Shown here: positions 223-14,723 of the stretch, piece after piece
Layout: each line of letters starts with the position of its first letter
Position numbering within the stretch: the stretch's first letter is position 1
DNA from: a virus
Taxonomy: Duplodnaviria; Heunggongvirae; Uroviricota; Caudoviricetes
Strand: one strand, 5' to 3'
Virus record (IMG/VR): IMGVR_UViG_2690316278_000001
DNA length: 15,537 bases
Translations under genes and position numbers: made by a program
Notes under the pieces: generated by a model
The model's database searches: none
What the model was told of the DNA's origin: nothing
What the model saw: only the letters and a program-made list of their open reading frames with translations

Positions 223-236
223 CCGGACGTTATGAT

Positions 237-647
237 TTAGTGCGGAAATATTTGTGTAGTGTTCTGTATGTTCTCAGTAAAGAGTAATGAATTATCAAAG
301 GTATAGTAATACCTTTTGTTTTCGTGGATATTTGTAATCCATCTGAAAACCCCTGCTGTAGCAAGATTTTTCCTGTATTCGTAAAATGATAACTCTCCTG
401 ATTTGAATCCTTTTAAGGTGGCTTCTATAAGGCATTTATTTTTTGAAAATCTTACATTTACAACCTTACCCTGTCCTTTTATTAAAACCGTATTATCGTT
501 TTCAAGAACAAGATGAATATTCTCTGTGGCTAAATAGTAAATGTAATGTGAGACATTGTGACGTTTTAGTTCAGAATAAAACCAGTGATAGTTTAAATTA
601 TTTCGCACTTTATCGAATATTTGTTTAAAAATGGCAACCTGAGCCAT
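237..647 (-). CDS. hypothetical protein, AT-rich accessory ORF of unknown function (136 aa)
   Basis: Minus-strand ORF in the six-frame track (237..662). The ATG at 645-647 has a GGAAGG Shine-Dalgarno 7 nt upstream (complement of 655-660); the ATG at 660-662 has none. The DNA is visibly AT-rich compared with the structural genes, and a long ORF in AT-rich DNA is unlikely by chance. It lies 57 bp downstream of the RHH-like ORF on the same strand. No family recognised. Confidence 0.5.
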
Positions 648-704
648 TGTAGTACCTTCCATGTGATATGAGGGGGCGTAGTCTGCACGATTATCTAAAT
701 TGCT

Positions 705-938
705 TCAATCTGGTCTAACCTGTTTTCTGAGCAATTCAGTAATGTCACTCTTTTCTTTGTTTGCTTCAGGCGAAACTCTTTTTTCTGAGCACAGTCTCCG
801 GCGGCAGGCTTCAATGACCCAGGCTGAGAAATTCCCGGACCCTTTTTGAACAAGAGCGATGTTAATTTGTTCAATCATTTGGTTAGGAAAGCGGATGTTG
901 CGGGTTGTTGTTCTGCGGGTTCTGTTCTTCGTTGACAT
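705..938 (-). CDS. small ribbon-helix-helix (Arc/MetJ/CopG-like) putative DNA-binding protein; resembles the short DUF3950/YlcI-type ORFs found next to cos in lambdoid prophages
   Basis: 77-aa minus-strand ORF. The N-terminal pattern RNIRFPNQMIEQINIALVQKGSGNFSAWVIEACRRRL fits strand-helix-loop-helix of an RHH fold and is preceded by a basic tail. It is divergent from Nu1 across the cos region. Family assignment is from memory, not a search. Confidence 0.55.
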   Translation of the reverse strand: MSTKNRTRRTTTRNIRFPNQMIEQINIALVQKGSGNFSAWVIEACRRRLCSEKRVSPEANKEKSDITELLRKQVRPD

Positions 939-1087
939 GAGGTTGCCCTGTATTCAGTGTCGCTGATTTGTATTGTCTGAAGTTGTTTTTACGTTAAGTT
1001 GATGCAGATCAATTAATACGATACCTGCGTCATAATTGATTATTTGACGTGGTTTGATGGCGTAGATGCACGTTGTGACATGTAGAT

Positions 1088-1305
1088 GATAATTATTATC
1101 ATTTTGCGGGTCCTTTCCGGCGATCCGACAGGTTACGGGGCGGAAGGCGCGCGGGTTTTCGCTATTTATGACAATTTTCCGGTTTAAGGCGTTTCCGTTC
1201 TTCTTCGCCGTAACCTAATGTTTTTATTTAAAACACCCCCTGAAAAGAAAGGAAACGACAGGTGCTGAAAACGGGCTTTTTGGCCTCTGTCGTTTCCTTT
1301 CTCTG
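1088..1305 (+). other. cos: cos packaging site region (cosQ-proximal palindrome, cosN, cosB with Nu1-binding R3/R2/R1 elements and an AT-rich IHF-like site)
   Basis: Near-identical to the lambda right-end/left-end junction as I remember it. CGTTTCC-type Nu1 binding elements at 1190-1197 (R3), 1250-1258 (R2, inverted GGAAACGAC) and 1290-1297 (R1). AT-rich tract 1218-1240 between R3 and R2. 13-bp palindrome GATAATtATTATC at 1088-1100. Lies immediately upstream of the terminase small subunit gene. Confidence 0.8.
1138..1149 (+). other. cosN: cosN core (position of the 12-nt cohesive end), variant sequence GGGCGGAAGGCG
   Basis: Flanks ...GGTTACG | and | CGCGGGTTTTCGC match lambda. The 12 nt between them read GGGCGGAAGGCG, against canonical lambda GGGCGGCGACCT (5 substitutions in the 3' half). 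Comparison is from memory. Confidence 0.6.
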
Positions 1306-1326
1306 TTTTTGTCCGTGGAATGAACA

Positions 1327-1846
1327 ATGGAAGTCAACAAAAAGCAGCTGGCTGACATTTTCGGTGCGAGTATCCGTACCATTCAGAACTGGCAGGAACA
1401 GGGAATGCCCGTTCTGCGAGGCGGTGGCAAGGGTAATGAGGTGCTTTATGACTCTGCCGCCGTTATAAGATGGTATGCCGAAAGGGATGCTGAAATTGAG
1501 AACGAAAAGCTGCGCCGGGAAGTTGAAGAACTGCGGCAGGCCAGCGAGACAGATCTCCAGCCAGGGACTATTGAGTACGAACGCCATCGACTTACGCGTG
1601 CGCAGGCCGACGCACAGGAGCTGAAAAATGCCAGAGACTCCGCTGAAGTGGTGGAAACCGCATTCTGTACTTTCGTGCTGTCGCGGATCGCAGGTGAAAT
1701 TGCCAGTATTCTCGACGGGATCCCCCTGTCGGTGCAGCGGCGTTTTCCGGAACTGGAAAACCGACATGTTGATTTCCTGAAACGGGATATCATCAAAGCC
1801 ATGAACAAAGCAGCCGCGCTGGATGAACTGATACCGGGGTTGCTGA

Positions 1847-1872
<26 letters not shown>
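1327..1872 (+). CDS. Nu1: terminase small subunit (gpNu1)
   Basis: 181-aa ORF, MEVNKKQLADIFGASIRTIQNWQEQGMPVLRGG..., essentially the lambda gpNu1 sequence with its N-terminal winged-HTH. Sits directly after cosB and overlaps the start of A. Confidence 0.95.
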
Positions 1873-5553
<3,681 letters not shown>

Positions 5554-5573
<20 letters not shown>

Positions 5574-6873
5574 TCTCCCGCATATTGCCAGCATGGCTTT
5601 TAATGAGCCGCTGATGCTTGAACCCGCCTATGCGCGGGTTTTCTTTTGTGCGCTTGCAGGCCAGCTTGGGATCAGCTGCCTGACGGATGCAGTATCCGGC
5701 GACAGCCTGACTGCCGGAGAGGCACCCGCGGCGCTGGCGTTATCCGGTGATGATGACGGACCACGACAGGCCCGCAGTTATCAGGTAATGAACGGCATCG
5801 CCGTGCTGCCGGTGTCCGGCACGCTGGTCAGCCGGACGCGGGCGCTGCAGCCGTACTCGGGGATGACCGGTTACAACGGCATTATCGCCCGTCTGCAACA
5901 GGCTGCCAGCGACCCGATGGTGGACGGCATTCTGCTCGATATGGACACACCGGGCGGAATGGTGGCGGGAGCATTTGACTGCGCTGACATCATCGCCCGT
6001 GTGCGTGACATAAAGCCGGTATGGGCGCTGGCCAATGACATGAACTGCAGCGCAGGTCAGCTGCTTGCCAGTGCCGCCTCCCGGCGTCTGGTCACGCAGA
6101 CCGCCCGGACAGGCTCCATCGGCGTCATGATGGCTCACAGTAATTACGGCGCTGCACTGGAGAAACAGGGCGTGGAAATCACGCTGATTTACAGCGGCAG
6201 CCATAAGGTGGATGGCAACCCCTACAGCCATCTACCGGATGATGTCCGGGAAACATTGCAGTCCCGGATGGATGCAACCCGCCGGATGTTTGCACAGAAG
6301 GTGTCGGCATATACCGGCCTGTCCGTGCAGGCTGTGCTGGATACCGAGGCTGCAGTGTACAGCGGTCAGGAGGCCATTGATGCCGGACTGGCTGATGAAC
6401 TTGTTAACAGTACCGATGCGATCACCGTCATGCGTGATGCACTGGATGCACGTAAATCCCGTCTCTCAGGAGGGCGAATGACCAAAGAGACTCAATCAAC
6501 AACTGTTTCAGCCACTGCTTCGCAGGCTGACGTTACTGGCGTGGTGCAAGCGACGGAGGGCGAGAACGCCAGCGCGGCGCAGCCGGACGTGAACGCGCAG
6601 ATCACCGCAGCGGTTGCGGCAGAAAACAGTCGCATTATGGGGATCCTCAACTGTGAGGAGGCTCACGGACGCGAAGAACAGGCACGCGTGCTGGCCGAAA
6701 CCCCCGGTATGACCGTGGAAACGGCCCGCCGTATTCTGGCCGCAGCACCACAGAGTGCACAGACGCGCAGTGACACTGCGCTGGATCGTCTGATGCAGGG
6801 GGCACCGGCACCGCTGGCTGCAGGTAACCCGGCATCTGATGCCGTTAACGATTTGCTGAACACACCAGTGTAA
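5554..6873 (+). CDS. C: capsid maturation protease (gpC, ClpP/SppA-like S49 family)
   Basis: GTG at 5554 preceded by GAGGAGGAGAA Shine-Dalgarno; the product begins (M)TAELRNLPHIASMAFNEPLMLEP... as in lambda gpC (439 aa). The track ORF 5419..6873 is the same frame extended upstream into B. Overlaps the B 3' end by 20 nt. Confidence 0.9.
6268..6873 (+). CDS. Nu3: scaffolding protein gpNu3, nested in-frame in the 3' part of C
   Basis: In-frame internal ATG at 6268 (MDATRRMFAQKVSAYTG...) sharing the C stop codon. This matches the lambda C/Nu3 nested arrangement, which I know from the literature. Confidence 0.8.
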   Translation: MDATRRMFAQKVSAYTGLSVQAVLDTEAAVYSGQEAIDAGLADELVNSTDAITVMRDALDARKSRLSGGRMTKETQSTTVSATASQADVTGVVQATEGENASAAQPDVNAQITAAVAAENSRIMGILNCEEAHGREEQARVLAETPGMTVETARRILAAAPQSAQTRSDTALDRLMQGAPAPLAAGNPASDAVNDLLNTPV

Positions 6874-6882
6874 GGGATGTTT

Positions 6883-7326
6883 ATGACGAGCAAAGAAACC
6901 TTTACCCATTACCAGCCGCTGGGCAATAGTGACCCGGCTCATACCGCAACCGCGCCCGGCGGATTGAGTGCGAAAGCGCCTGCAATGACCCCGCTGATGC
7001 TGGACACNNNNNNNNNNNNNNNNNNNNNNNNNNNNNNNNNNNNNNNNNNNNNNNNNNNNNNNNNGCCCGGCGGATTGAGTGCGAAAGCGCCTGCAATGAC
7101 CCCGCTGATGCTGGACACCTCCACCCGTAAGCTGGTTGCGTGGGATGGCACCACCGACGGTGCTGCCGTTGGCATTCTTGCGGTTGCTGCTGACCAGACC
7201 AGCACCACACTGACGTTCTACAAGTCCGGCACGTTCCGTTATGAGGATGTGCTCTGGCCGGAGGCTGCCAGCGACGAGACGAAAAAACGGACCGTGTTTG
7301 CCGGAACGGCAATCAGCATCGTTTAA
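6883..7326 (+). CDS. D: head decoration protein gpD; interrupted in this assembly by an in-frame scaffold artefact (57 N plus a 54-nt duplicated contig end)
   Basis: [41 protein letters not shown]... The ATG at 6883 has an AAGGG Shine-Dalgarno 6 nt upstream; the ATG at 6877 has no spacing. Removing 7008-7118 (111 nt, exactly 37 codons) leaves 110 aa, the length of lambda gpD. Confidence 0.9.
7008..7064. other. assembly gap (N-run) inside D, flanked by a duplicated 54-nt sequence (6954-7007 = 7065-7118)
   Basis: 57 n characters; the 54 nt before and after the gap are identical, the signature of overlapping contig ends joined with a spacer. Confidence 0.9.
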
Positions 7327-7343
7327 CTTTACCCTTCATCACT

Positions 7344-7368
7344 AAAGGCCGCCTGTGCGGCTTTTTTT
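7344..7368 (+). terminator. GC-rich hairpin followed by a T7 run between D and E (intrinsic-terminator-like or mRNA-stability element)
   Basis: AAAGGCCGC ctgt GCGGC TTTTTTT: 8-9 bp stem with a 4-nt loop and a U-tract, read directly from the sequence. It sits inside the late operon, so it is probably read through. Confidence 0.45.
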
Positions 7369-7381
7369 ACGGGATTTTTTT

Positions 7382-8407
7382 ATGTCGATGTACACAACCG
7401 CCCAGCTGCTGGCGGCAAATGAGCAGAAATTTAAGTTTGATCCGCTGTTTCTGCGTCTCTTTTTCCGTGAGAGCTATCCCTTCACTACGGAGAAAGTCTA
7501 TCTCTCACAAATTCCGGGACTGGTAAACATGGCGCTGTACGTTTCGCCGATTGTTTCCGGTGAGGTTATCCGTTCCCGTGGCGGCTCCACCTCTGAATTT
7601 ACGCCGGGATATGTCAAACCCAAGCATGAGGTGAATCCGCAGATGACCCTGCGTCGCCTGCCGGATGAAGATCCGCAGAATCTGGCGGACCCGGCTTACC
7701 GCCGCCGTCGCATCATCATGCAGAACATGCGTGACGAAGAGCTGGCCATTGCTCAGGTCGAAGAGATGCAGGCAGTTTCTGCCGTGCTCAAGGGCAAATA
7801 CACCATGACCGGTGAAGCCTTCGATCCGGTTGAGGTGGATATGGGCCGCAGTGCGGCGAACAACATCACACAGTCCGGCGTCACGGAGTGGAGCAAGCGT
7901 GACAAGTCCACGTATGACCCGACCGACGATATCGAAGCCTACGCGCTGAACGCCAGCGGTGTGGTGAATATCATCGTGTTTGACCCGAAAGGCTGGGCGC
8001 TGTTCCGTTCCTTCAAAGCCGTCAAGGAGAAGCTGGATACCCGTCGCGGCTCTCATTCCGAGCTGGAGACAGCGGTAAAAGACCTGGGCAAAGCGGTGTC
8101 CTATAAGGGAATGTATGGCGATGTGGCCATCGTCGTGTATTCCGGACAGTACGTGGAAAACGGCGTCAAAAAGAACTTCCTGCCGGACAACACGATGGTG
8201 CTGGGGAACACTCAGGCTCGCGGTCTGCGCACCTATGGCTGCATTCAGGATGCGGACGCACAGCGCGAAGGCATTAACGCCTCTGCCCGTTACCCGAAAA
8301 ACTGGGTGACCACCGGCGATCCGGCGCGTGAGTTCACCATGATTCAGTCAGCACCGCTGATGCTGCTGGCTGATCCTGATGAGTTCGTGTCCGTTCAACT
8401 GGCGTAA
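7382..8407 (+). CDS. E: major capsid protein (gpE)
   Basis: 341-aa product starting MSMYTTAQLLAANEQKFKFDPLFLRLFFRESYPFTTEK..., matching lambda gpE. The track ORF starts earlier at a GTG inside the upstream hairpin, which I reject. Confidence 0.95.
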   Translation: MSMYTTAQLLAANEQKFKFDPLFLRLFFRESYPFTTEKVYLSQIPGLVNMALYVSPIVSGEVIRSRGGSTSEFTPGYVKPKHEVNPQMTLRRLPDEDPQNLADPAYRRRRIIMQNMRDEELAIAQVEEMQAVSAVLKGKYTMTGEAFDPVEVDMGRSAANNITQSGVTEWSKRDKSTYDPTDDIEAYALNASGVVNIIVFDPKGWALFRSFKAVKEKLDTRRGSHSELETAVKDLGKAVSYKGMYGDVAIVVYSGQYVENGVKKNFLPDNTMVLGNTQARGLRTYGCIQDADAQREGINASARYPKNWVTTGDPAREFTMIQSAPLMLLADPDEFVSVQLA

Positions 8408-8409
8408 TC

Positions 8410-8431
8410 ATGGCCCTTCGGGGCCATTTTC
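8410..8431 (+). terminator. perfect 7-bp hairpin with UUCG tetraloop plus U-rich tail immediately after E
   Basis: ATGGCCC ttcg GGGCCAT TTTCTCTCT at 8410-8436; the stem is perfectly complementary and UUCG is a very stable tetraloop. Placement after the most abundant structural gene suggests a 3' stability or partial attenuation element. Confidence 0.45.
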
Positions 8432-8448
8432 TCTCTGTGGAGGAGTTC

Positions 8449-8847
8449 ATGACGAAAGATGAACTGATTGCCCGTCTTCAGGAGCTGGGTGAGCAATTGA
8501 ACCGCGATGTCAGTTTGACGGGAACGAAAGAAGAACTGGCGCTTCGTGTGGCAGAGCTGGAAGAAGAGCTTGATGACACGGATGAAACTGCCGGTCAGGA
8601 CACCCCTCTCAGCCGGGAAAATGTGCTGACCGGGCATGAAAATGAGGTGGTATCAGCGCAGCCGGATACCGTGATTCAGGATACGGCTGAACTGGTCACG
8701 GTCGTGGCACTGGTGACGCTGCATACTGATGCACTTCACGCCACGCGGGATAAACCTGTGGCATTTGTGCTGCCGGGAACGGCGTTTCGTGTCTCTGCCG
8801 GTGTGGCAGCCGAAATGACAGAGCGCGGCCTGGCCAGAATGCAATAA
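8449..8847 (+). CDS. FI: DNA-packaging protein gpFI
   Basis: 132-aa product MTKDELIARLQELGEQLNRDVSLTGTKEELALRVAELEEELDD... with GGAGGA Shine-Dalgarno at 8439-8444; matches lambda gpFI. Confidence 0.92.
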   Translation: MTKDELIARLQELGEQLNRDVSLTGTKEELALRVAELEEELDDTDETAGQDTPLSRENVLTGHENEVVSAQPDTVIQDTAELVTVVALVTLHTDALHATRDKPVAFVLPGTAFRVSAGVAAEMTERGLARMQ

Positions 8848-8858
8848 CGGGAGGCGCT

Positions 8859-9212
8859 GTGGCTGATTTCGATAACCTGTTCGATGCTGCCATTGCCCGC
8901 GCCGATGAAACGATACGCGGGTACATGGGAACGTCAGCCACCATGACATCCGGTGAGCAGTCAGGTGCGGTGATACGTGGTGTTTTTGATGACCCTGAAA
9001 ATATCAGCTATGCCGGACAGGGCGTGCGCGTTGAAGGCTCCAGCCCGTCCCTGTTTGTCCGGACTGATGAGGTGCGGCAGCTGCGGCGTGGAGACACGCT
9101 GACCATCGGTGAGGAAAATTTCTGGGTAGATCGGGTTTCGCCGGATGATGGCGGAAGTTGTCATCTCTGGCTTGGACGGGGCGTACCGCCTGCCGTTAAC
9201 CGTCGCCGCTGA
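8859..9212 (+). CDS. FII: head-tail connector protein gpFII
   Basis: 117-aa ORF with GTG start, (M)ADFDNLFDAAIARADETIRGYMGTSATM...; matches lambda gpFII. Confidence 0.92.
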   Translation: MADFDNLFDAAIARADETIRGYMGTSATMTSGEQSGAVIRGVFDDPENISYAGQGVRVEGSSPSLFVRTDEVRQLRRGDTLTIGEENFWVDRVSPDDGGSCHLWLGRGVPPAVNRRR

Positions 9213-9223
9213 AAGGGGGATGT

Positions 9224-9802
9224 ATGGCCATAAAAGGTCTTGAGCAGGCCGTTGAAAACCTCAGCCGTATCAGCAAAACGGCGGTGCCCGGTGCCGCCGC
9301 AATGGCCATTAACCGCGTTGCTTCATCCGCGATATCGCAGTCTGCGTCACAGGTTGCCCGTGAGACAAAGGTACGCCGGAAACTGGTAAAGGAAAGGGCC
9401 AGGCTGAAAAGGGCCACGGTCAAAAATCCGCAGGCCAGAATCAAAGTTAACCGGGGGGATTTGCCCGTAATCAAGCTGGGTAATGCGCGGGTTGTCCTGT
9501 CCCGCCGCAGGCGTCATAAAAAGGGGCAGCGTTCATCCCTGAAAGGTGGCGGCAGCGTGCTTGTGGTGGGTAACCGTCGTATTCCCGGCGCGTTTATTCA
9601 GCAACTGAAAAACGGCCGGTGGCATGTTATGCAGCGTGTGGCCGGGAAAAACCGTTACCCCATTGATGTGGTGAAAATCCCGATGGCGGTGCCGCTGACC
9701 ACGGCGTTTAAACAGAATATTGAACGGATACGGCGTGAACGTCTTCCGAAAGAGCTGGGCTATGCGCTGCAGCATCAACTGAGAATGGTAATAAAGCGAT
9801 GA
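9224..9802 (+). CDS. Z: tail completion protein gpZ
   Basis: 192-aa ORF MAIKGLEQAVENLSRISKTAVPGAAAMAINR... with GGGGGA Shine-Dalgarno; matches lambda gpZ. ATGA overlap with U. Confidence 0.92.
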   Translation: MAIKGLEQAVENLSRISKTAVPGAAAMAINRVASSAISQSASQVARETKVRRKLVKERARLKRATVKNPQARIKVNRGDLPVIKLGNARVVLSRRRRHKKGQRSSLKGGGSVLVVGNRRIPGAFIQQLKNGRWHVMQRVAGKNRYPIDVVKIPMAVPLTTAFKQNIERIRRERLPKELGYALQHQLRMVIKR

Positions 9803-10194
9803 AACATACTGAACTCCGTGCAGCCGTACTGGATGCACTGGAGAAGCATGACACCGGGGCGACGCTTTTTGATGGTCGCCCCGCTGTTTTTGATGAGGAA
9901 GATTTTCCGGCAATTGCCGTTTATCTCACCGGCGCTGAATACACGGGCGAAGAGCTGGACAGCGATACCTGGCAGGCGGAGCTGCATATTGAAGTTTTCC
10001 TGCCTGCTCAGGTGCCGGATTCAGAGCTGGATTCGTGGATGGAGTCCCGGATTTATCCGGTGATGAGCGATATCCCGGCACTGTCAGATTTGATCACCAG
10101 TATGGTGGCCAGCGGCTATGACTACCGGCGCGACGATGATGCGGGCCTGTGGAGTTCAGCCGATCTGACTTATGTCATTATCTATGAAATGTGA
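9799..10194 (+). CDS. U: tail tube terminator protein gpU
   Basis: 131-aa [48 protein letters not shown]... matching lambda gpU. Confidence 0.93.
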
Positions 10195-10201
10195 GGACGC
10201 T

Positions 10202-10942
10202 ATGCCTGTACCAAATCCTACAATGCCGGTGAAAGGTGCCGGGACCACCCTGTGGGTTTATAAGGGGAGCGGTGACCCTTATGCGAACCCGCTTTCAGAC
10301 GTTGACTGGTCGCGTCTGGCAAAAGTTAAAGACCTGACGCCCGGCGAACTGACCGCTGAGTCCTATGACGACAGCTATCTCGATGATGAAGATGCAGACT
10401 GGACTGCGACCGGGCAGGGGCAGAAATCTGCCGGAGATACCAGCTTCACGCTGGCGTGGATGCCCGGAGAGCAGGGGCAGCAGGCGCTGCTGGCGTGGTT
10501 TAATGAAGGTGATACCCGTGCCTATAAAATCCGCTTCCCGAACGGCACGGTCGATGTGTTCCGTGGCTGGGTCAGCAGTATCGGTAAGGCGGTGACGGCG
10601 AAGGAGGTGATTACCCGCACGGTGAAGGTCACCAATGTGGGACGTCCGTCGATGGCAGAAGATCGCAGCACGGTGACGGCGACGACCGGCATGACGGTGA
10701 CACCCGCCAGTGCTTCCGTAGTGAAAGGGCAGAGCACCACGCTGACCGTGGCATTCCAGCCGGATGGCGCAACCGACAAGAGCTTCCGTGCGGTGTCTGC
10801 GGATAAAACAAAAGCCACCGTGTCGGTCAGTGGTATGACCATCACCGTGAAAGGTGTTGCTGCAGGCAAGGTCAACATTCCGGTCGTATCTGGTAATGGT
10901 GAGTTTGCTGCGGTTGCAGAAATCAACGTCACCGCCAGTTAA
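10202..10942 (+). CDS. V: major tail tube protein gpV, with C-terminal Ig-like (Big_2-type) domain
   Basis: 246-aa product [33 protein letters not shown]... with GAGGA Shine-Dalgarno at 10193-10197. The C-terminal ~80 aa ([77 protein letters not shown]) has the Ig-like signature known for lambda gpV. Confidence 0.93.
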
Positions 10943-10957
10943 TCCGGAGAGTCAGCG

Positions 10958-11380
10958 ATGTTCCTGAAAACCGAATCATTTGAACATAACGGTGTGACCG
11001 TCACGCTTTCTGAACTGTCAGCCCTGCAGCGTATTGAGCATCTCGACCTGATGAAACGGCAGGCAGAACAGGCGGAGTCAGACAGCAACCGGAAGTTTAC
11101 TGTGGAAGACGCCATCAGAACCGGCGCTTTTGTGGTTGCGATGTCCCTGTGGCATAACCATCCGAAGAAGACGCAGATGCCGTCCATGAATGAAGCCGTT
11201 AAACAGATTGAGCAGGAAGTGCTTACCACCTGGCCCACAGAGGCAATTTCTCATGCTGAAAACGTGGTGTACCGGCTGTCCGGTATGTATGAGTTTGTGG
11301 TGAATGATGCTCCTGAACAGGCAGAGGACGCCGGGCCTGCAGAGCCTGTTTCTGCGGGAAAGTGTTCGACGGTGAGCTGA
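10958..11380 (+). CDS. G: tail assembly chaperone gpG
   Basis: 140-aa ORF MFLKTESFEHNGVTVTLSELSALQRIEHLDLMKRQAEQAES... matching lambda gpG; contains the slippery site near its 3' end. Confidence 0.92.
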   Translation: MFLKTESFEHNGVTVTLSELSALQRIEHLDLMKRQAEQAESDSNRKFTVEDAIRTGAFVVAMSLWHNHPKKTQMPSMNEAVKQIEQEVLTTWPTEAISHAENVVYRLSGMYEFVVNDAPEQAEDAGPAEPVSAGKCSTVS

Positions 11381-11796
11381 GTTTTGCCCTGAAACTGGCG
11401 CGTGAGATGGGGCGACCCGACTGGCGCGCCATGCTTGCCGGGATGTCATCCACGGAGTATGCCGACTGGCACCGCTTTTACAGTACCCATTATTTTCATG
11501 ATGTTCTGCTGGATATGCACTTTTCCGGGCTGACGTACACCGTGCTCAGCCTGTTTTTCAGCGATCCGGAGATGCATCCGCTGGATTTCAGTCTGCTGAA
11601 CCGGCGCGAGGCTGACGAAGAGCCTGAAGATGATGTGCTGATGCAGAAAGCGGCAGGGCTTGCCGGAGGTGTCCGCTTTGGCCCGGACGGGAATGAAGTT
11701 ATCCCCGCTTCCCCGGATGTGGCGGACATGACGGAGGATGACGTAATGCTGATGACAGTATCAGAAGGGATCGCAGGAGGAGTCCGGTATGGCTGA
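10958..11796 (+). CDS. G-T: tail assembly chaperone gpG-T fusion made by programmed -1 ribosomal frameshift (slippery heptamer G GGA AAG at 11356-11362)
   Basis: The -1 frame ORF 11362..11796 (T segment, 144 codons) begins exactly at the GGGAAAG heptamer in the last codons of G and ends just after the H start. This is the classical lambda G/GT arrangement. Confidence 0.85.
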
Positions 11797-14397
11797 ACCG
11801 GTAGGCGATCTGGTCGTTGATTTGAGTCTGGATGCGGCCAGATTTGACGAGCAGATGGCCAGAGTCAGGCGTCATTTTTCCGGTACGGAAAGTGATGCGA
11901 AAAAAACAGCGGCAGTCGTTGAACAGTCGCTGAGCCGACAGGCGCTGGCTGCACAGAAAGCGGGGATTTCCGTCGGGCAGTATAAAGCCGCCATGCGTAT
12001 GCTGCCTGCACAGTTCAACGACGTGGCCACGCAGCTTGCAGGGGGGCAGAATCCCTGGCTGATCCTGCTGCAACAGGGTGGTCAGGTTAAGGACTCCTTC
12101 GGCGGGATGATCCCCATGTTCAGGGGGCTTGCCGGCGCGATCACCCTGCCGATGGTGGGGGCCACCTCGCTGGCGGTGGCGACCGGTGCGCTGGCGTATG
12201 CCTGGTATCAGGGCAACTCAACCCTGTCCGATTTCAACAAAACGCTGGTCCTTTCCGGTAATCAGGCGGGACTGACGGCAGATCGTATGCTGGTCCTGTC
12301 CAGAGCCGGGCAGGCGGCAGGGCTGACGTTTAACCAGACCAGCGAGTCACTCAGCGCACTGGTTAAGGCGGGGGTAAGCGGTGAGGCTCAGATTGCGTCC
12401 ATCAGCCAGAGTGTGGCGCGTTTCTCCTCTGCATCCGGCGTGGAGGTGGACAAGGTCGCTGAAGCCTTCGGGAAGCTGACCACAGACCCGACGTCGGGGC
12501 TGACGGCGATGGCACGCCAGTTCCATAACGTGACGGCGGANNNNNNNNNNNNNNNNNNNNNNNNNNNNNNNNNNNNNNGACGGCGGAGCAGATTGCGTAT
12601 GTTGCTCAGTTGCAGCGTTCCGGCGATGAAGCCGGGGCATTGCAGGCGGCGAACGAGGCCGCAACGAAAGGGTTTGATGACCAGACCCGCCGCCTGAAAG
12701 AGAACATGGGCACGCTGGAGACCTGGGCAGACAGGACTGCACGTGCATTCAAATCCATGTGGGATGCGGTGCTGGATATTGGTCGTCCTGATACCGCGCA
12801 GGAGATGCTGATTAAGGCAGAGGCTGCGTTTAAGAAAGCAGACGACATCTGGAATCTGCGCAAGGATGATTATTTCGTTAACGATGAAGCACGGGCGCGT
12901 TACTGGGATGATCGTGAAAAAAAACGCCTGGAGCGGGATGCAGCCCAAAAGAGGGTAGATCAACAGCGTCAACAGGACAAAAATGCGCAGCAGCAGAGCG
13001 ATACCGAAGCGTCACGGCTGAAATATACCGAAGAGGCGCAGAAGGCTTACGAACGGCTGCAGACGCCGCTGGAGAAATATACCGCCCGTCAGGAAGAACT
13101 GAACAAGGCACTGAAAGACGGAAAAATCCTGCAGGCAGATTACAACACGCTGATGGCGGCGGCGAAAAAGGATTATGAAGCGACGCTGAAAAAGCCGAAA
13201 CAGTCCGGCGTGAAGGTGTATGCGGGCGATCGTCAGGAAGACAGTGCTCATGCGGCCCTGCTGACGCTTCAGGCAGAACTCCGGACGCTGGAGAAGCATG
13301 CCGGAGCGAATGAGAAAATCAGCCAGCAGCGCCGGGATTTGTGGAAGGCAGAAAGTCAGTTCGCGGTACTGGAGGAGGCGGCACAACGTCGCCAGCTGTC
13401 CGCACAGGAGAAATCCCTGCTGGCGCATAAAGACGAGACGCTGGAGTACAAACGCCAGCTGGCTGCACTTGGTGACAAGGTTACGTATCAGGAGCACCTG
13501 AATGCGCTGGCGCAGCAGGCGGATAAATTCGCACAGCAGCAACGGGCAAAACGGGCAGCCATTGATGCGAAAAACCGGGGGCTGACTGACCGGCAGGCAG
13601 CGCGGGAAGCCACGGAACAGCGCCTGAAGGAACAGTATGGCGATAATCCTCTGGCGCTGAATAACGTCATGTCAGAGCAGAAAAAGACCTGGGCGGCTGA
13701 AGACCAGCTTCGCGGGAGCTGGATGGCAGGCCTGAAGTCCGGCTGGAGTGAGTGGGAAGAGAGCGCCACGGACAGTATGTCACAGGTTAAAAGTGCAGCC
13801 ACGCAGACCTTTGATGGTATTGCACAGAATATGGCGGCGATGCTGACCGGCAGTGAACAGAACTGGCGCAGCTTCACCCGCTCCGTGCTGTCCATGATGA
13901 CAGAAATTCTGCTTAAGCAGGCAATGGTGGGGATTGTCGGGAGTATCGGCAGCGCCATTGGCGGGGCTGTTGGTGGCGGCGCATCCGCGTCAGGTGGTAC
14001 AGCCATTCAGGCCGCTGCGGCGAAATTCCATTTTGCAACCGGGGGATTTACGGGAACCGGCGGCAAATATGAGCCAGCGGGGATTGTTCACCGTGGTGAA
14101 TTTGTCTTCACGAAGGAGGCAACCAGCCGGATTGGCGTGGGGAATCTCTACCGGCTGATGCGCGGCTATGCGGAAGGTGGTTATGTGGGCGGTGCCGGAA
14201 GTCCGGCGCAGATGCGGCGGGCTGAAGGCATTAATTTTAATCAGAACAATCACGTGGTGATTCAGAACGACGGTACGAATGGTCTGCCAGGTCCACAGAT
14301 GATGAAGGCCGTGTATGACATGGCCCGCAAGGGTGCCCGTGATGAAATTCAGACACAGATGCGTGATGGTGGCCAGTTCTCCGGAGGTGGACGATGA
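11789..14397 (+). CDS. H: tail tape measure protein (gpH); reading frame broken in this assembly by a scaffold artefact at 12541-12587
   Basis: Two track ORFs (11789..12697 and 12610..14397) are the N- and C-terminal parts of one gene. Removing the 38-N run plus the 9-nt duplicated GACGGCGGA (47 nt) joins ...ARQFHNVTA to EQIAYVAQLQRSGDEAG... in frame and gives 853 aa, the length of lambda gpH. Long K/R/E/Q-rich helical middle and Gly-rich C-terminal segment are typical of tape measure proteins. Confidence 0.88.
12541..12578. other. assembly gap (N-run) inside H, flanked by duplicated GACGGCGGA
   Basis: 38 n characters with 9 nt repeated on both sides (12532-12540 and 12579-12587); produces an apparent frameshift. 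Confidence 0.85.
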
Positions 14398-14723
14398 AAA
14401 CCTTCCGCTGGAAAGTGAAACCCGGTATGGATGTGGCTTCGGCCCCTTCTGTAAGAAAGGTGCGCTTTGGTGATGGTTATTCCCAGCGAGCGCCTGCCGG
14501 GCTGAATGCCAACCTGAAAACGTACAGCGTGACGCTTTCTGTCCCCCGTGAGGAGGCCATGGTACTGGAGTCGTTTCTGGAAGAGCACGGGGGCTGGAAA
14601 GCCTTTCTGTGGACGCCGCCTTATGAGTGGCGGCAGATAAAGGTGACCTGCGCAAAATGGTCGTCGCGGGTCAGTATGCTGCGTGTTGAGTTCAGCGCAG
14701 AGTTTGAACAGGTGGTGAACTGA
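14394..14723 (+). CDS. M: tail tip protein gpM
   Basis: 109-aa ORF MKTFRWKVKPGMDVASAPSVRKVRFGDGYSQRAPAGLNANLKTYSVTLS... matching lambda gpM. GGAGGTGG Shine-Dalgarno; ATGA overlap with the H stop. Confidence 0.93.
   Translation: MKTFRWKVKPGMDVASAPSVRKVRFGDGYSQRAPAGLNANLKTYSVTLSVPREEAMVLESFLEEHGGWKAFLWTPPYEWRQIKVTCAKWSSRVSMLRVEFSAEFEQVVN

Follow-up and report, generated by a model that had tools for sequence, protein, structure and literature searches.

A widespread natural cohesive-end allele in the tolerated half of cosN at a lambda-type cos site

In a 15,537-nt viral sequence (IMG/VR record IMGVR_UViG_2690316278_000001, Caudoviricetes), the whole of which is referred to here as the window, the 12 bases that form the cohesive ends of phage lambda are replaced by a different 12-mer. 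This change is a real and widespread natural allele, and it lies in the half of cosN that tolerates variation. The explanation that best fits the evidence, to which we give a probability of roughly 85%, is a working lambda-type cos site carrying a common alternative cohesive-end allele. The changed 12-mer is ordinary, being neither an error nor the mark of a dead prophage.

The cosN 12-mer of the window (positions 1138-1149) reads GGGCGGAAGGCG, the lambda counterpart being GGGCGGCGACCT, and is bordered by AGGTTACG (1130-1137) and CGCGGGTTTTCGC (1150-1162). We aligned the window cos with those of lambda/DE3, 2H10, Turner, PhiR70_1 and an Stx1 phage, and compared it column by column with lambda NC_001416. 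The cosN region is collinear with, and equal in length to, that of all these relatives. Seven of the 12 cohesive-end positions are the same in window and lambda (1-6 and 11), and the other five differ (7 C>A, 8 G>A, 9 A>G, 10 C>G, 12 T>G), so that all differences fall in bp 7-12; the changed block stops exactly at the bottom-strand nick. In the adjacent 5.86 kb, 119 of 5859 positions are unlike lambda (2.0%), a rate at which five changes within six adjacent bases have a binomial probability of ~2e-8; the cluster is therefore real and not a chance accumulation. The first-pass annotation of this DNA had described an altered 12-mer between conserved cosQ-side and cosB flanks, with five changes in the 3' half of the overhang, and the window letters and the lambda alignment bear this description out; the flanks are lambda-like in cosQ, the CG pairs and R3, R2 and R1. 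The variant allele also makes a GCGCGC across the nick, which was considered as a meaningful motif and dropped for want of evidence of function.

Table 1. Features of the cos region and the terminase genes, in window coordinates.
Feature	Position	Strand	Remarks
cosQ heptamer GGGTCCT, packaging-termination signal	1108..1114	+	at lambda bp 48473-48479, lambda register
cosN, 16-bp nicking site (CG pair, 12 bp between staggered nicks, CG pair)	1136..1151		
cosN left half GGGCGG	1138..1143	+	identical to lambda
cosN right half AAGGCG	1144..1149	+	holds the five changed bases (lambda CGACCT)
cosN-cosB spacer CGCGGGTTTTCGCTATTTATGA, 22 bp	1150..1171	+	invariant in all contexts listed, with any cosB type
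cosB R3 AGGCGTTTCCGTTCTT	1187..1202	+	equals lambda bp 50-65 (16/16), nick distance unchanged
cosB R2, inverted copy of 16-mer CTGTCGTTTCCTTTCT	1246..1261	-	
cosB R1, 16-mer CTGTCGTTTCCTTTCT	1287..1302	+	
nu1, terminase small subunit, 181 aa	1327..1872	+	98.3% identical to lambda Nu1
A, terminase large subunit, cosN-nicking nuclease, 641 aa	1847..3772	+	99.5% identical to lambda gpA

The elements around the cohesive end (Table 1) are arranged as in lambda. The cosQ heptamer sits ~30 bp upstream of the top-strand nick, and a cosQ was found upstream of each variant-allele site inspected. When cosN is defined as the 12 bp plus two flanking bp on either side (PMC9026076), the CG pairs at both nick sites are kept (1136-1137 and 1150-1151), and within R3, placed by its published lambda coordinates (PMC9026076), the critical bp 56, 58 and 59 are as in lambda. 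Beyond the cohesive end, bp 13-190 depart from lambda by eight substitutions and a 1-bp indel, and the R3-R2 interval holds five bases unlike lambda (lambda bp 71, 73, 78, 97 and 102). For the IHF site I1, a strict WATCAANNNNTTR pattern, which is uncalibrated on lambda itself, had no match in 1138-1337. Lambda (NC_001416) and the window thus share cosQ, the spacing, the CG flanks, GGGCGG, the spacer, R3, the R2 and R1 16-mers and the nu1 start, and are set apart by the right half of cosN. With cosQ, the CG pairs, GGGCGG and cosB in place, the site holds all the elements known to matter and differs only where a difference is tolerated. Judged by its sequence, and leaving I1 aside, it would be classed as a lambda-like cos of lambda packaging specificity.

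A separate small difference lies near window position 1275, between R2 and R1 (lambda bp 134-140), where the window reads AACGGGCTTTTT, one base fewer than the GCGAGGCTTTTT of NC_001416. The five other aligned sequences, including prophage DE3, are likewise one base short here, and the R2-R1 spacing is thereby 1 bp different in many natural lambda-like phages.

The tolerance of the right half is well documented. Published genetics shows cosN to be functionally asymmetric, with mutations of bp 7-12 having minor effects and symmetric changes of bp 1-6 being harmful (PMC4669245, Feiss lab); the asymmetry arises from R3-bound TerS, which anchors TerL for the bottom-strand nick (PMC4669245). Natural variation in bp 7-12 is common, as in N15 and phiD326 (positions 9 and 12) and in Gifsy-1 (positions 8, 9 and 11), and cosQ and the nick-flanking CG pairs are conserved among natural cos sites (PMC4669245). 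Moreover, lambda TerL gives equal phage yields whether the site is cosN-lambda or cosN-N15, and the lambda and N15 terminases are without cosN specificity (PMC4669245). Right-half variation of cosN is an established phenomenon. The window changes five of the six right-half bases, which exceeds every experimentally tested variant in the literature covered (N15 has two).

We searched viral contigs for other alleles with degenerate-base scans, which produce chance matches in GC-rich contigs and from which we kept only sites with an upstream cosQ or the downstream conserved spacer. These scans show the published asymmetry again. When the right half was fixed as AAGGCG and the left half left free, every contig recovered (78/78) read GGGCGG. 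With the left half fixed instead, cosQ-bearing sites carried the right halves CAGGCG, CAGACG, CTGGCG, CAGCGG and GAGCGG, and further ones read CGCACG, CGACCG, AGACCT and TGACCT; CAGGCG, CGACCG and AGACCT are near-intermediate. Rare alleles included GGGCGGCAGGCG, one step from that of the window, as well as GGGCGGCGACCG, GGGCGGTGACCT, GGGCGACGACCT and GGGCGTCAGGCG, the last two of which reveal some variation in the left half too. PhiR70_1 (L002, PV340577) has the cosN GGGCGGAGACCT, with a single change, C7>A, in common with the window allele. The searchable literature, to which a dedicated survey of natural cosN sequences reportedly made by Vahanian et al. in 2017 (Virology 509:140) does not belong, makes no mention of the window allele, and full-text matches to the 12-mer and its reverse complement came from unrelated plant and Streptomyces papers only.

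Several characterized systems resemble the window in varying the right half of cosN. In N15 and phiD326 (cosN GGGCGGCGTCCG; N15 end from NC_001901), the left half and CG flanks are conserved and T12>G is as in the window, whereas the changes number only two (9 and 12), and in N15 itself the cosB is simple, its R3 is different and the TerS is distinct. The cosN of mEp213/LLS, GGGCGGCGCGCT (PMC12315714), and that of Gifsy-1 (PMC4669245) are likewise documented right-half variants; unlike the window, they have other bases, fewer changes and different head and terminase modules.

Taken with this genetics, the window suggests a simple account of how the site would work. Nu1 would bind R3, R2 and R1 of the lambda-type cosB and set gpA at a fixed distance, and gpA would cut at the conserved CG steps, placing its two nicks 12 bp from each other. 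The left end would then have the 5' overhang GGGCGGAAGGCG and the right end CGCCTTCCGCCC, and the two should anneal about as stably as those of lambda and circularize the injected genome. The five changes would fall in the cosB-proximal half, bp 7-12, where the TerS anchor rather than base identity would govern nicking, so that the right half would be free to vary and the variant allele would require no change in terminase. Predicted self-annealing is -18.6 kcal/mol for the variant and -19.0 kcal/mol for lambda, the predicted melting temperatures are 51.2 and 52.8 °C, respectively, and the ends of both have a G+C content of 10/12. From sequence, we infer that the site would be cut at these positions and that this prophage would be inducible.

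The allele is found well beyond the window. With minimal flanks it was present in 78 IMG/VR contigs, and the exact 32-mer in 14. Among complete E. coli genomes, ~106 of 3488 matching records (~3%) were at least 95% identical to an 81-mer, a band that only the variant allele can reach and from which three records were confirmed by direct reading. In the plasmid collection, 21 of 40 matches carry the variant, mostly ~46-kb non-mobilizable, lambda-headed N15-like phage-plasmids, and the hosts of such phage-plasmids are E. coli, Shigella sonnei, E. albertii and E. fergusonii. The variant is the second most frequent cohesive-end type among the sites found. These IMG/VR allele frequencies are inexact, and the counts of the canonical allele are lower bounds. 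The variant was absent among the 120 matches listed from an N12 scan of IMG/VR with strict lambda flanks, which roughly limits its share of sites with such flanks to a few percent at most, and the exact 32-mer had no match in the GTDB species-representative genomes, among which the lineage of the window is not represented.

Two deposited phages carry the variant 12-mer, PhiR46_1 (PV340565) and YDC107_1 (CP025712), the latter classed in Ravinvirus. PhiR46_1 has telL/telR, ParAB and a full lambda head and tail set, and its standing as a plaque-forming phage is taken from the GenBank host field, which gives ECOR13; the likely source of the PhiR phages is Brenes & Laub 2025 (Cell Host Microbe), as cited by PMC13190303. 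Both phages share with the window GGGCGGAAGGCG and a lambda-type cosB, their Nu1 and gpA being ~93% and ~99% identical to those of lambda. They differ from it in being linear plasmid prophages (telL/telR, ParAB), N15-like with lambda-type heads and tails, and in their cosQ-cosN spacer, GGCAGGCTACG, which is two bases apart from the GACAGGTTACG of the window. The first-pass annotation had held that its doubts about the site would fall if related functional phages carried the same variant, and, as far as the records show, they do. Both phage records are written in plasmid-prophage order, and none of the phage records in the collection has a terminus at a variant cosN.

The surroundings of the allele are diverse. 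In the 78 contigs it adjoins at least 24 different cosQ-cosN spacers. At ~60 sites the cosB and TerS are of lambda type (Nu1 92-100% identical); at 18 sites cosB begins with CCGGGGAAAATCATGTCGG and the TerS is ~82% identical to Nu1, with a TerL of just 65% identity to gpA at two of these; and at four sites cosB is Monarch/N15-like, with a TerS ~34% identical to Nu1. The canonical allele was found on the same spacers and cosB types. The left flank of the window is that of 2H10 and Turner, both with the canonical 12-mer, and its right flank matches, but for two bases, that of Stx1 phages, which also carry the canonical 12-mer. The window element is nearest to integrated lambda-like prophages, and its closest complete-genome relative, in E. 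coli PSS-07 (99.0% over 6.8 kb), belongs to a prophage that seems complete, running from an integrase to tail fibres, and has the canonical allele. Since the same flanks occur with either allele and PSS-07 is canonical, the alleles have therefore been shuffled among near-identical phages.

Three other explanations, all raised by the first-pass annotation, were weighed against a natural allele at a working site. If the five changes were artefacts of a poor draft, the true sequence would be GGGCGGCGACCT. The annotation was right that there are scaffold artefacts elsewhere in the window, which has three N runs (159-222, 7008-7064 and 12541-12578); these are scaffold joins, not masked sequence, and their flanks are duplicated over 54 bp around 7008-7064 and 7 bp around 12541-12578, for which reason gene D seems 37 codons too long and H appears split and frame-shifted. 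However, more than 900 bases separate cosN, which sits within the unbroken contig 223-7007, from the nearest join, and five independent, near-identical assemblies (L010, L015, L018, L013 and L007; 99.7-100% over shared stretches) have the same 12-mer. The join at 7008-7064 is crossed uninterrupted by L010 and L015 and that at 12541-12578 by L010, and at 159-222 the 64 N stand for ~28 bases of L015. As the exact allele also recurs in independent IMG/VR contigs, complete E. coli chromosomes, plasmids and two phage records, we reject an error, the probability of which is practically nil. A packaging-defective, decaying cryptic prophage whose cos is no longer cut by terminase is also hard to reconcile with the data and is, in our view, very unlikely. 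E. coli prophages are mostly defective to some degree, the window shows only part of the element, and two other prophages with the variant cosN (L141 and L160) have lost head genes to an inserted element. Nonetheless, nu1, A, W, B, C, D, E, FI, FII, Z, U, V, G, H, M and L, after which the window stops, are all full length, with 93-100% amino-acid identity to lambda for the 16 of 16 genes tested and with breaks at the scaffold N runs only. Among IMG/VR loci with a lambda-type cosB and enough sequence, Nu1 and A are intact at 29/29 variant loci, compared with 37/53 of the canonical loci listed, in a non-random sample. Flanks of very different kinds, and phage-plasmids of four species, also carry the allele unaltered, a pattern unlike that of a dead site, and right-half changes in cosN leave cleavage unimpaired (PMC4669245).

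TerL could have co-evolved with the changed right half and gained a new specificity to suit it, since TerL makes the nicks and the partial twofold symmetry of cosN suggests base contacts in both halves. The terminase genes, however, make this extremely improbable. Nu1 differs from that of lambda by K48R, A75T and L132I only, all outside the recognition helix (residues 17-24) and the wing (31-39; limits from PMC9026076), and gpA by T151S, D185E and T466I (3/641 residues). When full-length, lambda-type gpA proteins from 26 variant loci and the 38 canonical loci listed were compared, no column separated the two groups, each of the three gpA changes occurred in both, and two gpA proteins were identical between them. 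The variant also occurs with the TerL that is 65% identical to gpA, and the altered nicking that the annotation had suggested is further opposed by the ability of lambda TerL to cut a right-half variant cosN equally well (PMC4669245). The natural allele at a working lambda-type cos site is hence the reading that we retain.

The insertions in L141 and L160 have some features of their own. In L141 (22167-31524; E. coli APEC E14033) and L160 (reverse complement, 6012-14640), the head genes of a variant-cosN prophage are cut off, the truncated gene being E in one, whereas the other loses B at residue 279. In L141 the stretch that begins right behind the truncation encodes an integrase, a primase and an SSB, and has capsid and decoration genes of its own; L160 has 2.7 kb of this inserted stretch at 94% identity, together with E-like (42% identical) and D-like genes of its own. 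The insert looks like a capsid-encoding satellite inside a helper-type prophage. A further cos in L160 combines the canonical GGGCGGCGACCT with a Monarch/N15-like cosB, and thus both cosN alleles lie 12.3 kb apart on one contig. As for the terminase genes of the IMG/VR loci with a lambda-type cosB, in the same non-random sample broken copies of A or nu1 were commoner at the canonical loci listed (16/53) than at variant loci (0/29), for which old defective lambdoid prophages with a canonical site may account.

Although the variant ends are predicted to pair well with each other, annealing of a lambda end to a window end is predicted to involve the 6-bp left half only, at -9.5 kcal/mol versus -18.6 to -19.0 kcal/mol for matched ends; the corresponding prediction for lambda and N15 is ~-15.2 kcal/mol, and such mixed ends still circularize with a fourfold loss of yield (PMC4669245). 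It is therefore plausible, on these predictions, that the window ends are poorly compatible with lambda-type ends, incompatible ends having been a further suggestion of the first-pass annotation. A more elaborate, and rather doubtful, reading builds on this incompatibility: the 12 bases between the nicks would be an exchangeable cassette, swapped via heteroduplex ends after packaging from mixed concatemers, with GGGCGGAAGGCG and GGGCGGCGACCT as selected compatibility types in E. coli lambdoid phages and phage-plasmids, the selection arising from mismatched ends that lower the viability of inter-type recombinants. The changed block does end exactly at a nick, between flanks identical on both sides to those of canonical-allele phages, and the two alleles are found with the same spacers and cosB types. 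Furthermore, two alleles are frequent and many are rare, the 5/6 divergence greatly exceeds that of the flanks, predicted cross-annealing is halved, a mismatch of two bases already has its cost in yield, and one infected cell can release both alleles (PMC4669245). However, the near-intermediate right halves described above are what drift at an unconstrained site would give, and five mismatches may anneal too weakly for the proposed exchange. In addition, the conserved bases that flank the block hide breakpoints, so that ordinary recombination explains the same pattern. If a selected cassette were nevertheless at work, genomes packaged across unlike cos sites would pair over 6 bp and rarely circularize, which would place a small post-recombination barrier between phages that otherwise mix freely.

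Recognition of the alternative allele has practical and mechanistic consequences. Cos finders and phage-end predictors keyed to GGGCGGCGACCT miss an allele carried by ~3% of matching complete E. coli records and about half of matching plasmid-collection records, with the risk that prophages bearing it are wrongly called defective. For the cosB-proximal half of cosN, the tolerance on record grows from two or three changes to five of six, which fits a model in which the bottom-strand nick is positioned by TerS anchoring rather than by base identity. A second common type of cohesive end, predicted to anneal poorly with lambda ends, also bears on compatibility in cosmid work and in vitro packaging, and cohesive-end types bear on the extent of lambdoid gene exchange across cos.

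Canonical lambda-type cos sites also appeared in records from unrelated hosts, namely a Bacillus thuringiensis plasmid (H259, HM037272.1), a 15.7-kb Klebsiella oxytoca plasmid (H247) and one 'Campylobacter' phage record, most likely through contamination with lambda or a cosmid vector. Lastly, one 56,122-bp contig (IMGVR_UViG_3300045988_113976) holds two variant cos copies on opposite strands (L166 and L174), a pair that may be an inverted duplication read round the hairpin telomere of a linear N15-like phage-plasmid or else an assembly artefact.
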